DNA of 64,000 nt from a virus (Duplodnaviria; Caudoviricetes). Below, in pieces: positions 31,161 to 41,584 of the stretch; positions within the stretch are counted from its first letter, which is position 1, and every line of letters starts with the position of its first letter. The notes beneath the pieces are model-generated. The model made no database searches, was not told where the DNA came from, and saw only the letters and a list, made by a program, of their open reading frames with translations. Position numbers and translations under genes: made by a program. The DNA is taken from IMG/VR virus record IMGVR_UViG_2974611114_000001, positions 32,001 to 96,000 of that record. The stretch is one strand, 5' to 3'.

Positions 31161-32006
31161 ATGTCTAAGGAAAAGCAATTCGCCCCTGTACCAGAGCAGG
31201 AAGATTTATATAGGGAGCTATCCAGAATTGTTGAGATATTTAAAGTATCTAAAGGCGAACTACGACCACATTTTATGTTATCTGGTGCATCAGGGTCAGG
31301 AAAATCATTTCTTATACAAGCACTGGCATCCATAGCAAAAGTTGGTTTTCTTGAAATTAACGCAGCTCAGCTAACTAAAGAAGGCGTGTCTGGAAATAGC
31401 TTATCAAAGGCACTTAGTCCCCTTAGAGAGCGAGCTGGTAAACCTACAATAGTATTTGTTGATGAATTTGACAAACTGTTCATCTCTGGTAATACTAATA
31501 GTGAATTAGCCCATGAAAGTACTAATGGGGTTCAAAACGAGTTTCTAAAAATTCTAGAATCGGAAACTACTTCTGTATTTGGGGACTATGGCAAGTATGT
31601 AGAAGTTCCAACAAATAATGTTTTATATGTATTTGCAGGAGCATTCAATGGTGCCGAAAATCTGACGCTAGACAAGTTACGGGATATGGGAATTAAGACA
31701 GAGTTTCTAGGTCGTGTTGGGTTGATATATAATACTACCAAAATATCGTTGTCTAGTATGTTAAACTTCTTAACAGAAAATACACTACTAGACAAATATT
31801 TGAGTATCTTTCCTGAAGTAGATAAGCAGGAAGTAATAGATACTTTAATCCCTATCGTTAAAGATCAGTATGAGGAAAATACTCTTGGTCTTAGAATGAT
31901 AAACACCCTAATAACTAAATATTTTGTTAGTGAAGGTAAAATGACTCAGGGCAGTACTGATGAAGCCCCTGTATTACACCGAACACTTAAATTTGGAGCC
32001 AAATAA
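31161..32006 (+). CDS. ClpX-like AAA+ ATPase lacking Zn domain and IGF loop
   Basis: GASGSGKS, AAQLTKEGVSG, FVDEFDKL, GVQNEFLKILE, AGAF, G..TEFLGR, LGLR. Confidence 0.8.
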   Translation: MSKEKQFAPVPEQEDLYRELSRIVEIFKVSKGELRPHFMLSGASGSGKSFLIQALASIAKVGFLEINAAQLTKEGVSGNSLSKALSPLRERAGKPTIVFVDEFDKLFISGNTNSELAHESTNGVQNEFLKILESETTSVFGDYGKYVEVPTNNVLYVFAGAFNGAENLTLDKLRDMGIKTEFLGRVGLIYNTTKISLSSMLNFLTENTLLDKYLSIFPEVDKQEVIDTLIPIVKDQYEENTLGLRMINTLITKYFVSEGKMTQGSTDEAPVLHRTLKFGAK

Positions 32007-32428
32007 TGGAAGGTAATATGTTAGACTTTCTTCGGGCTGAAATTGCACAGGCACGATTAAAGAAAGATACTGAATGGGTCACAGTTGTATCTACTGCTGT
32101 ATCTGAGCTACAGTATCAGTTTGGTGATTTTGTAACTAAAGATCAACTAATTAAATACGCAAAAGCTCAGATTAGCGCCCTAGAAAAGGCTAAATTAAAA
32201 GCTAAAGAGCGTAAAATTGATGCAGAGATTAAAATGCCAGAACTTCAGCAAAAGTTATACGACATGATACTGCCACCACAGTTAACATACGATGATCTAC
32301 TAGAAGTACTTGTTGACTCTACAGGTGACACGTTAGGAACGCATATGAAGTTCCTAAAAGAACACTATAATGGTCAGTATGATGGTAAGATCGCAAAACA
32401 AGCTATTCTGGACTTCATGAGCATCTAA
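32006..32428 (+). CDS. YqeY/GatB-domain protein
   Basis: LPPQLT..., G.HMKFLKE.Y.GQYDGK. Confidence 0.8.
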   Translation: MEGNMLDFLRAEIAQARLKKDTEWVTVVSTAVSELQYQFGDFVTKDQLIKYAKAQISALEKAKLKAKERKIDAEIKMPELQQKLYDMILPPQLTYDDLLEVLVDSTGDTLGTHMKFLKEHYNGQYDGKIAKQAILDFMSI

Positions 32429-32441
32429 TTTAAAATTTTAG

Positions 32442-32470
32442 TTGCTAAATGCTAAAAACTTTGATATAAT
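32442..32470 (+). promoter_or_regulatory. T5-type early promoter
   Basis: TTGCTA-17-TATAAT; the same TTG(A/C)NN-17-TATAAT-ATWT pattern recurs at ~28328, 28874, 33735, 36128, 38297, 39342, 41536, 44508, 48653, 49199, 50857, 53691, 58678. Confidence 0.8.
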
Positions 32471-32476
32471 ATTTAT

Positions 32477-33200
32477 ATTAAATCGGAACACGGATTATTA
32501 ATAATTCTAATAGTACGATTTCAGGGTACAGCAGGCAGACTATGCTGGTAATATAAGTACATTGTGCTAATTACGAATAGAATCTGTGGGTTTCACTATC
32601 ATAGTGTATAATTTGGCTCTTAACCACCCCGTAAACTCTACCCTTGCATTTTACTACGGTTTAATGCAGAAGAAAGTAAGTATCTTGGTACAAGAGGCGT
32701 AGACACAGGATCGCGGTGCAAATCCGTTAAGTTATCTGCATAAAAGAAGCAACGAAATCTACTCGTCTGGGTTCAACTCCCAGTAACAGATAATAAGGTA
32801 CTAAGAGAAAACAACGAATAAGTATACTAGGTCGCGAACTACTATACTGAGTCCCTAATACTAAATTAGGAAATGTGGAGCTGATCACTTCCCATTTCGG
32901 GATATACTACCTCATGGGGCACCAATATTAATAGCGGAACCCATACGCTTCCTAGGCACGTAAGGGATAAGTCATGACACCCTGCCTATGATGGAATATT
33001 GGAGAAAGTGGTAGTGTAATCCCGAAATGGGTGTGTCGAACTCACTTATGTTGTAACCCTGTTAATATATGAGAGTGTTTACGGGAGTATATTAATAAGA
33101 ACAAGATAACTGGGGCTTATATATTAAGCATCGCTGGCACTACGAACAGTATCCAGGTCTGACCAGGAGACGCTGTTAATGAAGAAAGCCAAAACCCATT
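32477..33200 (+). ncRNA. candidate large structured ncRNA (~720 nt)
   Basis: No ORF; promoter directly upstream; more than 10 helices including long-range pairings and two T-loop hairpins. Confidence 0.7.
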
Positions 33201-33242
33201 ACTTAATTATCAGAGATAACCTATTAATTCGGAGATAAAGCA

Positions 33243-33575
33243 ATGAATTGTCTAACAAATAGAGACGTTAGAGTAATACTAGAAACATTACCATTATACT
33301 TTAAAACAAGATTAGATAGCTCAGTGGATTGTCATACTGAACTTGCAAAGGCTCTAGGGGAGTCCAGATTTGAAGCCAAAGCAAAGCTATATCAGTTCCT
33401 ATACTCGTATAATGGAGTAGCCCAACTTTTATGGGTACGTAAACCTTACGTAGCGCTACATATTATGGCTACTGAATTATCCAATCTAAAAGGAACAACA
33501 ATTAAAGAAGAGCTAGATCAGGCAGAAGTAAAGGCAGCTATAAAACTTAATATGCCAGAACGCTTCTGTCAGTAA
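33243..33575 (+). CDS. hypothetical protein
   Basis: GGAG RBS, 110 aa. Confidence 0.7.
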   Translation: MNCLTNRDVRVILETLPLYFKTRLDSSVDCHTELAKALGESRFEAKAKLYQFLYSYNGVAQLLWVRKPYVALHIMATELSNLKGTTIKEELDQAEVKAAIKLNMPERFCQ

Positions 33576-33639
33576 AGTATTCCCTACTACCTTAGGGAAC
33601 CGTAGAGCTGGGACATCTCTTTAATCTGTCCTACACTAT

Positions 33640-33715
33640 GCGCCCTTAGCTCAGTGGATAGAGCAATAGCCTTCTAAGCTATGGGTCGTAGGTTCGAATC
33701 CTACAGGGCGTACCA
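33640..33715 (+). tRNA. tRNA-Arg(UCU)
   Basis: Cloverleaf, anticodon loop CT-TCT-AA, encoded CCA. Confidence 0.95.
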
Positions 33716-33788: not shown

Positions 33789-34045
33789 AATAAATAAAAA
33801 TCTACTTTTGGAGATAGTAAAAGTCACTGCGAAGTTACGGGTGTTTACAAGAGCACTGCGGGAGAGCCTAATAGTAATAGGGCAACCAATTCCACACCAG
33901 CTATGGTTCTCTGTATCTTAGGGCAGAGGGAATTCCTAACCGAAAGGTAACTATTCAGGGGGCGATCAGGTAAACTATACTATCTTAGTAGCTGGTTACT
34001 ACTACGGGCAACTTGTAAGTCGCAAAAGTAGATTCTTTATTTATT
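33789..34045 (+). ncRNA. candidate structured ncRNA (~255 nt)
   Basis: Own promoter (33735-33763); terminal helix AATCTACTTTTG/CAAAAGTAGATT and inner helices. Confidence 0.6.
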
Positions 34046-37159: not shown

Positions 37160-37451
37160 CTATGTAAAGCATGACAGGGCTGAGTAGGCTTACTAGCAAG
37201 CTCCAGCCGACGCCTTAAGTGGCATGCTAGCCTCATTAAACAGTCTAACTAACTAAGTGGGAGAAGAGGGTAGCCCACCTTTAATTAACTTAGTTGATTA
37301 AAGTATGTGTGCAAGAACTAGAACCACCCGCCAAAAGAATGCGATTCTACATACTAGATTAGATGGGACTTGGTTTACCCTGAGGATTGGCGATCCAATA
37401 TAGCATAAAAGTTCGATAGGTATATGCTAGTAATACCTACGGCACACATAG
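37160..37451 (+). ncRNA. candidate structured ncRNA (~290 nt)
   Basis: Nested terminal helices CTATGT/ACATAG and GTAGG.TTACTAGCA/TGCTAGTAA.CCTAC. Confidence 0.6.
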
Positions 37452-40577: not shown

Positions 40578-40982
40578 ATGAGGTATATTATGCCAGACTA
40601 TCTAGGGGCTAAACAGTCCATTAATAAAATGAGTAAAGCAGCTTTAGAATTAGCAGAGTGTATGTATCCTCTACTAGAAGAAGCGCATAACCGTAAACCA
40701 AACGCAGGGTTTGATGCTAAGCTCTTAAAGTTAAAAGAATTAGCGTCCCAGCTAAAATTCTATGAAGAAGTAGATAAAGAAGTATCCATGTATACTCTAG
40801 AGTACGGCGGAGAAGTATTGTACATTGCTATTAGAGGTGATGACATGGTCGTTCATTCTAGTATGTTAAAGCATCTATGGGAAGATAGAGAATCCTTTGA
40901 ATTCGATAAGTATTATTCCTGTAAGGTTAATGAATACTTCTTAGACCCATCTGTGCTTGATAATAAGGTGCGTATCTGGTAA
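40578..40982 (+). CDS. hypothetical protein
   Basis: ORF track; GAGG RBS suggests start at MPDYL. Confidence 0.65.
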   Translation: MRYIMPDYLGAKQSINKMSKAALELAECMYPLLEEAHNRKPNAGFDAKLLKLKELASQLKFYEEVDKEVSMYTLEYGGEVLYIAIRGDDMVVHSSMLKHLWEDRESFEFDKYYSCKVNEYFLDPSVLDNKVRIW

Positions 40983-41190
40983 ATATTTAAGGGCAATTAT
41001 GAGTAGTTCAGGGGTTATTTTAATTAGTATTCTTACTGTGCTATGTATATTATCAGCAGTAATATACTCTGCTATCGTAGCAAATATACTAACAGGGTAT
41101 TCCCCAACGGAAGATATAAAGAGTACGTACTCTAAGGCGGTTAGTTCAGCCACTAATAAGTCTTGGAGTACTAAGAGGGAGTTGGTGTAG
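40957..41190 (+). CDS. small membrane protein
   Basis: Hydrophobic segment VILISILTVLCILSAVIYSAIVANIL; start uncertain. Confidence 0.5.
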   Translation: MIIRCVSGKYLRAIMSSSGVILISILTVLCILSAVIYSAIVANILTGYSPTEDIKSTYSKAVSSATNKSWSTKRELV

Positions 41191-41250
41191 TCGGTAGCAC
41201 TCCAGTCTTTGACACTGGCATCACAGGTTCGAGTCCTGTACTCCCTGCCA
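41176..41250 (+). tRNA. tRNA-Gln(UUG)
   Basis: CT-TTG-AC loop, GCCA. Confidence 0.93.
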
Positions 41251-41261
41251 ATTTTACTATA

Positions 41262-41355
41262 GGAAGAATAACCCTAAAGGTAAGGGAACTGTTTGCTAAA
41301 CAGTCAGTAGCTGATGAAAGTCGGTGTGTGGGTTCAAATCCCACTTCTTCCTCCA
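41262..41355 (+). tRNA. tRNA-Ser(GCU)
   Basis: TT-GCT-AA loop, long variable arm, CCA. Confidence 0.9.
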
Positions 41356-41584
41356 ATCTTATAGGTAGGATATGAAAAGTGTAGTATATATCGCTAAAAA
41401 TAAGTCAACTGGTAATCTAATATTTATAAGACCAGGAGAATACTACCCACAATATGAATATGAGTTAATATATTCCATGTCAGCAGAGCAGGCTATGCAG
41501 TTGGTTATAGATAGTCAAAAAGATTAAAATTGTATTTGCAAAACTCTCAATTTCTTGATATAATATTTATTAGAAATTGAGAGA

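Follow-up and report, generated by a model that had tools for sequence, protein, structure and literature searches.

A Large Structured RNA Heading the tRNA Cluster of a T5-Like Proteus Phage Is Probably an Ortholog of T5 RNAX

Introduction

What is encoded in the long stretch without open reading frames (ORFs) that precedes the tRNA genes of a T5-like phage? We investigated this question for a DNA stretch of 64,000 nucleotides (nt), called the window in the following, which covers positions 32,001 to 96,000 of the IMG/VR virus record IMGVR_UViG_2974611114_000001. All coordinates refer to the window unless stated otherwise. The record comprises 104,329 base pairs (bp) and is rated complete. 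Its source is a T5-like Proteus phage (Demerecviridae, Novosibvirus), and the region of interest is 99.6% identical to that of phage RP7. A gap of 814 bp (32429-33242) separates the ORFs 32006-32428 and 33243-33575 and contains no ORF of at least 60 amino acids (aa). From position 33640 on, 22 tRNA genes are clustered, the first of which is tRNA-Arg(UCU).

An earlier inspection of the letters of the window, termed the sequence-only reading here, had postulated that this ORF-free gap is headed by a TTGCTA-17-TATAAT promoter and holds a large and densely paired noncoding RNA (ncRNA), which is driven by this promoter, belongs to the + strand and heads the tRNA cluster. This RNA was proposed to be either a divergent GOLLD or ROOL RNA or a new class of large RNAs. 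GOLLD and ROOL are large phage-encoded RNAs which are located next to tRNA genes, carry tRNA-like inserts in their variable regions and are of unknown function. The gap, the promoter (32442-32470) and the existence of the ncRNA were borne out by our analysis. The region from 32477 to ~33200 on the + strand is probably the Novosibvirus ortholog of RNAX of phage T5, a structured ncRNA with a fixed position in the Demerecviridae examined.

Selection on RNA Structure

The gap 32429-33242 holds a real, large, folded ncRNA under structural selection. Eight records of Proteus phages contain the stretch with identities of 96-99.6%. The Providencia phages PSTCR5 and PR1 possess a collinear gap of ~745 nt with an identity of 62-72%, and blocks of 20-40 nt are invariant between these genera. 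A consensus structure of 163 base pairs was derived from eight Proteus and Providencia sequences using RNAalifold. Across the eight sequences, 94.9% of the cells of this consensus fold are paired. Changes on both sides of a pair were observed for 25 of the 163 pairs, compared to 10.0 ± 2.2 in column shuffles (none of 500 shuffles reached 25). This number fell to 3-5 in slid controls, in which the pairing partners were moved by 1-3 columns. The covariation score was 0.164 versus 0.096.

In the window itself the consensus pairs comprise 148 Watson-Crick pairs, 15 G-U pairs and no A-C pair, which fits an RNA of the + strand. These pair counts, together with the excess of two-sided changes, confirmed the structural selection on a + strand RNA that the sequence-only reading had proposed. 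It had also suggested a test for covariation among syntenic gaps. This test was performed with the shuffled and slid controls described above, and the compensatory changes exceeded both. The suggested comparison of the fold with shuffled controls was less informative. A folding energy z of -2.6 was obtained for the + strand, but a z of -2.5 for the - strand; this is weak evidence which does not tell the strands apart.

Relationship to RNAX of Phage T5

The GenBank record of phage T5 contains a misc_RNA rnaX (T5s08), described as "RNAX, stable RNA with unknown functions", at 40848..41566 (719 nt) of that record. It is placed between promoter P16-17 and tRNA-Arg, just after a gene annotated as "tRNA amidotransferase". 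The records of phages DT57C and DT571/2 carry the same RNAX annotation. Consequently, the RNA of the window does not represent a wholly new class.

The YqeY-like protein encoded directly upstream of the gap was used as a handle for finding syntenic blocks in other phages. In the corresponding position, E. coli phage TrudiRoth carries a large ORF-free block of 924 nt and Pectobacterium phage DU_PP_V one of ~1 kb. A search with the TrudiRoth block detected a further block of ~1.3 kb in a Klebsiella phage. The latter lies after an endolysin gene, and no tRNA-Arg is present within the stretch examined. Overall, an ORF-free block of 0.7-1.3 kb between a YqeY-like gene and tRNA-Arg(UCU) was found in Proteus, Providencia, T5, Epseptimavirus and Pectobacterium phages.

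Two sequence motifs of the RNAX core are present in 39 of 41 and 38 of 41 loci, respectively. Each of them occurs once in the window, where none is expected by chance. Furthermore, a covariance model of the core was built from 11 sequences of T5, Epseptimavirus, Klebsiella and Pectobacterium phages and contained no Proteus or Providencia sequence. This model matched the window at 33019-33145 over its full length (model positions 1-165) with 61.9 bits and E = 4e-14, and it also found the copies of Stubb, PL1, PSTCR5 and PR1. The core was detected as a single copy in the 104-kb genome. The genomic position agrees as well: an early promoter and a YqeY-like gene lie upstream and tRNA-Arg(UCU) downstream. 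These observations argue strongly for the orthology with T5 RNAX stated above. Homology, strand, promoter, structural selection and modular swapping are direct observations of this work on an RNA that is a rearranged variant of RNAX, annotated in GenBank and essentially uncharacterised. Literature searches on RNAX, on the stable RNAs of T5 and on structured RNAs of the Demerecviridae retrieved no paper on RNAX, and Rfam holds no RNAX family.

A metagenome scan with the core motif yielded 12 loci, mostly from known T5-like phages. One new Epseptimavirus-like fragment (L050) was obtained, two loci (L045 and L052) were chance matches, and no new Proteus-type diversity was found among the 12 loci. 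The IMG/VR scans returned mainly isolate genomes.

The proposed membership in GOLLD or ROOL could not be maintained. Rfam returned no GOLLD or ROOL match for the whole window at the gathering threshold. For the region 32350-33350 at E ≤ 10 only one chance microRNA match (E = 5.7) was obtained, and for the Providencia and Epseptimavirus homologues at E ≤ 1 only tRNAs. Thus, no membership in GOLLD, ROOL, OLE, RNase P RNA or tmRNA is detectable for this RNA. It resembles GOLLD and ROOL only by its size and genomic setting, and its host range (enterobacterial T5-like phages) differs from theirs. A permuted RNase P RNA was also considered on the basis of a motif resemblance. This candidate was rejected, with no RNase P match at E ≤ 10 in the region or at E ≤ 1 in the relatives; the GAUAACUGGGGCUUA segment, which would have formed a P4-type pairing, belongs instead to the core helix and a local hairpin.

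Promoter and Limits of the RNA

The promoter TTGCTA-17-TATAAT (32442-32470, + strand) corresponds to a sigma-70 early promoter with an extended -10 TG and scores 10/12 including the TG. The transcription start is predicted near 32477. The promoter resembles T5-type promoters in hundreds of Demerecviridae records, and the syntenic gap of T5 likewise begins with the annotated promoter P16-17. In the Providencia phages the -10 element and the first transcribed bases are kept.

The 3' limit of the RNA was defined by comparison with relatives. In seven relatives conservation spans the start site to 33199, and the sequences diverge after ~33200. The Novosibvirus form of the RNAX family therefore has a length of ~724 nt (32477-33200, + strand), and its conserved sequence ends with ...GAAGAAAGCCAAAACCCAU. 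No terminator-like site was found from the promoter up to 33700. In the absence of a terminator before the following ORF and tRNA-Arg, release of the RNA would need processing of the operon transcript.

Expression of the T5 Homologue

RNA libraries were searched for the T5 homologue, as libraries of T5-infected cells are likelier to exist than libraries for the Proteus phage. T5 RNAX is covered by contigs from RNA sequencing and RNA immunoprecipitation sequencing (RIP-seq) of four studies, which documents presence only. In two T5 RIP-seq studies the contigs stop or start with Illumina adapter at L039:3668 (~40884 of the T5 record). A distance of 36 nt separates this position from the downstream tRNA-Arg, and it falls into a U-run just before the base of a 3' hairpin. 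The hairpin, UUAAGAGCUUUU...AGAGUUCUUAA, is conserved in T5, TrudiRoth and DU_PP_V. The adapter-marked position is probably an RNA processing or termination site and hints at a discrete RNA end in T5. The RIP-seq runs appear to belong to studies of defence-associated reverse transcriptases in which T5 infection was used. The main text of PMC12483538 makes no mention of "T5 RNA" or "T5 transcript".

Secondary Structure

Every helix listed in the sequence-only reading was found where it had been placed. The local helices 32683/32798, TTATCTG/CAGATAA, CCAATATT/AATATTGG and the ~20-bp helix 32891/33011 as well as the T-arm CTGGG-TTCAACT-CCCAG at 32767-32783 are part of the minimum free energy (MFE) or the consensus fold, and several of the local helices covary. 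The helices 32489/32581 and 32511/32561 are formed in the single-sequence MFE fold, but the consensus prefers competing alternatives. The long-range pairings were not supported. Those of 32628/33077 and 32612/33187 are not preserved in the Providencia phages. The crossing pairing 32523/33049 needs C33057, which is found in the window only (A in seven of seven relatives), and it competes with the covarying core helix.

All elements described below are located on the + strand. Two adjoining hairpins (32529-32574) are found in the 5' domain, CAGCA/UGCUG at 32529-32547 and GUAAU/AUUAC with an inner hairpin at 32548-32574. In these helices (helices 4 and 5 of the consensus) one and four pairs, respectively, are changed on both sides, and GUAAU/AUUAC is replaced by another complementary pair in the Providencia phages. 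The 20-mer at 32528-32547 is identical in RNAX of Pectobacterium phage DU_PP_V. A variable tRNA-like module follows at 32683-32806. It is built from the outer helix 32683/32798, the inner helix TTATCTG/CAGATAA, the T-arm and a second hairpin with a 7-nt loop (CGG-UGCAAAU-CCG).

The next hairpin (32821-32848, helix 16) combines a covarying stem with two two-sided changes and an invariant 8-nt loop. The loop GUCGCGAA (32831-32838) is the same in Proteus and Providencia phages and includes the palindrome UCGCGA (32832-32837). The hairpin CCUAAU-ACUAA-AUUAGG (32854-32870, helix 17) contains two compensatory pairs and reads CCAAGU/ACUUGG in the Providencia phages. It is followed by a long branched hairpin (32883-33037, helices 18-22) with the invariant base GA(U)CAC/GUGUC plus CCCAUUUCGGGAU/AUCCCGAAAUGGG. 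Its distal branches include CCAAUAUU/AAUAUUGG, which changes in a compensatory manner to CCAACAUU/GAUGUUGG and CCAACGUU/GACGUUGG within the Proteus phages.

The family-wide core helix (33041-33114, helix 23) is formed by 33041-33054 and 33101-33114 and encloses a variable slot. In the window CUCA-C-UUAU-G-UUGU pairs with ACAA-G-AUAA-C-UGGG, which leaves one C·C and one G·G mismatch. Directly 3' of the core helix the hairpin GCUUA-UAUAU-UAAGC (33115-33129) is invariant in the Proteus and Providencia set. In the 3' closing region (33136-33199) GGC 33136-33138 pairs with GCC 33188-33190, and the tail GAAGAAAGCCAAAACCCAU (33181-33199) is kept in all eight sequences. The hairpin 33143-33179 is optional and missing in Stubb, VTCCBPA139, PL1 and Proteus phage 1. 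A GCYWAAACC motif related to the tail occurs in T5, TrudiRoth and DU_PP_V. In Proteus phage VTCCBPA139 the tail motif AAACCCAUUAAU is duplicated in tandem (aligned to window 33190-33200).

Conserved Core and Exchangeable Domains

Throughout the family the core is a 14-position helix of which the outer and inner 4-bp segments covary between genera. The outer and inner segments read AUCA...UAGU with ACUG...UGGU in T5 and CUGA...UGAU with AUCA...UCGG in TrudiRoth; UAGC pairs with GCUA in the Klebsiella phage. In DU_PP_V the central UUAU/AUAA is changed to CAC/GUG. All of these helices retain the G·G opposition, and all except the one of DU_PP_V also the C·C opposition. The core helix is followed in order by a covarying hairpin, the sequence UCGCUG and a closing helix that ends in a motif of the AAACC type. 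The post-core hairpin shows compensatory changes across the family (GCUUUUA/UAAAAGC in T5, GGUUC/GAACC in the Klebsiella phage and GCGUA/UACGC in DU_PP_V).

The content of the slot varies. T5-type phages carry a tRNA look-alike there, which scores 29.3 bits to the Rfam tRNA model in the case of the TrudiRoth insert, and variant L047 carries a long-arm tRNA look-alike. Unrelated hairpins occupy the slot in variant L018, the window and the Providencia phages. A clamped tRNA look-alike is thus not present in the core slot of the window, which holds a plain hairpin (~33061-33096). The Providencia and L018-type variants lack the look-alike as well, so that it is no defining feature of the whole family.

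T5 RNAX and the window RNA share the genomic slot, the strand logic and a similar size (719 versus ~724 nt) as well as the core helix with its G·G mismatch, the post-core hairpin and the AAACC-type closing motif. They differ in the arrangement of the flanking domains. The distance from the promoter to the core ranges from ~40 nt in T5 to ~560 nt in the window. T5 RNAX possesses a clamped tRNA look-alike in the slot and a 3' domain of ~500 nt without counterpart after 33200, whereas the T-arm module is relocated to the 5' domain in the window RNA. The 5' domain of the window shares its first hairpin and the GAAUAGAAUCUGUG block with Epseptimavirus and Pectobacterium phages, and the remainder is specific to the Proteus/Providencia lineage. 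The Providencia RNA (Priunavirus PSTCR5, PR1) is collinear over its full length, has the same domain order and displays compensatory changes; it differs by another T-arm module (GAGG-UUCGAUU-CCUC) and a shorter distal branch of the long hairpin.

Segment 32902-33005 of the window aligns to a DU_PP_V segment located 3' of the core with a score of 43, compared to 24 ± 3.4 in shuffles. Alignments of the long-hairpin domain to the 3' domains of T5, TrudiRoth and the Klebsiella phage did not exceed the shuffled controls. The DU_PP_V alignment tentatively points to domain reshuffling, and part of the 3' domain of T5 may sit inside the long hairpin.

The Proteus/Providencia form marks the mismatch-bearing core helix, the post-core hairpin, the AAACC closing motif and a few invariant loops as the indispensable parts of RNAX. 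It likewise identifies the swappable parts, namely the two terminal domains (5' and 3'), the T-arm module and the tRNA look-alike. This division provides structural studies with a minimal construct and shows where mutations should be placed in a tractable phage-host pair.

T-Arm and tRNA-Like Modules

The window RNA contains the canonical T-arm CUGGG-UUCAACU-CCCAG at 32767-32783, which exhibits a compensatory change from CUGGG/CCCAG to CUAGG/CCUAG in VTCCBPA139. It resembles the T-arm/acceptor minihelix of a tRNA: a 5-bp stem carries a UUCAACU loop with a closing G-C pair, and an acceptor-like helix surrounds the arm. In contrast to a tRNA, the module lacks a D arm and an anticodon arm, and the T stem is separated from the 3' acceptor-like strand by three extra nucleotides. 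No tRNA was called within 32477-33200 by ARAGORN or with Rfam RF00005. In PL1 the double-hairpin module of the window is replaced by a different T-arm segment, ACGG-UUCGAUU-CCGU followed by ...GGAGCA (aligned to ~32703-32806). The T-arm module is also replaced in the Providencia phages and likewise ends with GGAGCA. These GGAGCA-ended modules point to a cassette-like exchange. Exactly one T-arm is found inside RNAX in 12 of 13 variants, at differing positions, compared to 0.037 expected by chance.

Possible Function of RNAX

The near-universal but mobile T-arm, the location at the tRNA genes and the frequent YqeY-like neighbour point to tRNA biology. We tentatively prefer to regard RNAX as a trans-acting scaffold tied to this process. 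The strong early sigma-70 promoter would transcribe the RNA as the first element of the tRNA operon, and RNAX would then be freed by processing of the operon transcript. The freed RNA might act in trans as a stable scaffold which presents its T-arm or tRNA-like surface and its conserved loops to a partner. Candidate partners would be enzymes of the host that handle tRNAs, a defence nuclease directed against tRNAs or the YqeY-like protein of the phage. Such a scaffold would protect or tune the phage tRNA supply.

Several observations weigh against this interpretation or the evidence behind it. The covariation stems from two lineages (Proteus and Providencia) plus slight variation within the Proteus phages, the same sequences served to derive the structure and to count the covariation, and the 5' domain at ~32590-32810 aligns poorly between Proteus and Providencia phages. 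The expression evidence is limited to T5, and its contigs bridge the upstream gene, so that they demonstrate no discrete stable transcript, level, strand or start. With respect to the function, variant L018 (a 114-kb contig of Salmonella-phage type) is devoid of any T-arm, and the YqeY-like gene is not adjacent to RNAX in the Klebsiella phage. Finally, the tRNA-rich region of T5 is a reported hotspot of viable deletions according to PMC12483538, and the RNA may be dispensable in the laboratory. Since this region tolerates large deletions, any function of RNAX may be conditional.

RNAX might alternatively act in cis as a leader of the tRNA operon, for example in processive antitermination, in shielding of the 5' end from decay or as an ordered entry site for RNase E or RNase P, and would have no function once cut off. 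A strong promoter directly precedes the RNA, and no terminator separates it from the first tRNA. This arrangement, the fixed position across the family and the T5 RNA end 36 nt before tRNA-Arg are all compatible with a leader. Nevertheless, we consider this explanation doubtful. Known antitermination RNAs acting in cis, such as put and EAR elements, are far smaller than the multi-domain structure of 0.7-1.3 kb with invariant loops that is kept here. The T5 tRNA cluster contains many internal promoters, the T5 record speaks of a stable RNA, and the ORF that separates the RNA from tRNA-Arg in RP7 and the window was inserted with the RNA undisturbed.

A more far-reaching proposal, which we regard as rather improbable, is that RNAX constitutes a third giant phage RNA class. 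It would then be a tRNA-related machine, either a self-assembled RNA-only complex like ROOL and GOLLD or a ribonucleoprotein with the YqeY-like protein. In both cases it would display swappable T-arm or tRNA-like modules onto which host tRNA enzymes or tRNA-cleaving defence nucleases dock or by which they are decoyed. If so, the rapid swapping of modules between close relatives would be the footprint of an arms race. It also seems unlikely that RNAX works in the manner of a giant ornate RNA like GOLLD and ROOL, namely as an RNA-only multimer self-assembled by loop-loop contacts. Size, phage origin, tRNA adjacency and the tRNA-like inserts in the family would suit this idea, and the invariant palindromic loop UCGCGA on its covarying stem could kiss itself. 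However, neither Rfam family matched even at E ≤ 10, and the palindromic loop was not seen in T5-type sequences inspected by eye.

That the region is non-functional debris of decayed tRNA genes and recombination scars of homing endonucleases, transcribed only owing to an upstream promoter, is very unlikely. The swap of the T-arm module between close relatives (PL1 versus the window), the coming and going of ORFs and hairpins around the RNA and the homing-endonuclease genes annotated inside or beside the block in some relatives would agree with debris. Compensatory changes far above controls, invariant 20-40-nt blocks across genera at 62-72% identity and a core recognisable across subfamilies with E = 4e-14 speak against it.

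A coding function of the gap can practically be dismissed, even though the RP7 and Stubb records annotate hypothetical proteins there: its only two small ORFs (38 aa on the + strand and 53 aa on the - strand) gave no match in Pfam and PHROG, VTCCBPA139 carries a frameshift in the 53-aa frame, which in PL1 is replaced, and both frames contain stops in the Providencia phages, where the RNA structure is kept.

RNAX is among the largest conserved structured RNAs of well-studied enterobacterial phages, and our literature searches found no published RNAX structure or function. Should RNAX prove to contact tRNA enzymes or anti-phage tRNA nucleases, the means by which T5-like phages secure translation would include an additional layer based on RNA.

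Neighbouring Genes and Further Observations

The upstream neighbour of the RNA (32006-32428, + strand) encodes a stand-alone YqeY-like protein annotated as "tRNA amidotransferase" (phrog_1460, 2.6e-32). YqeY corresponds to the tRNA-binding tail domain of GatB. The YqeY domain PF09424 was matched by three of five homologues of this protein (best 1.5e-5), and the family profile matches B. subtilis YqeY (PDB 1ng6) at 1.3e-5. In Novosibvirus, Priunavirus, T5 and Epseptimavirus this gene precedes RNAX immediately or almost so. An AAA+ ATPase is encoded two genes before the RNA, at 31161-32006 (PF00004, 4.7e-15); it is annotated as ATP-dependent Clp protease subunit in Stubb.

Downstream, the RNA is followed by a 110-aa ORF of unknown family (33243-33575, + strand), which is found in the window and RP7 only and gave no match in Pfam and PHROG. 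It is absent in Stubb, VTCCBPA139, PL1 and Proteus phage 1. In these four relatives the tail of the RNA directly joins the trailer corresponding to 33577-33639. The ORF is thus an insertion in the lineage of the window and RP7, or it was deleted in the others. Behind it follows tRNA-Arg(UCU) (33640-33715, + strand), which opens the tRNA cluster and is conserved as the neighbour downstream of RNAX.

Further RNAs are annotated in the tRNA cluster of T5 (28-34 kb). The T5 record lists RNAI, RNAIII, RNAIV, RNA1, RNA2, RNA2H and RNA3 as small "stable" or "tRNA-like" RNAs. For the window, the sequence-only reading lists comparable structured non-tRNA spacers at 33789-34045, 37160-37451 and other positions.

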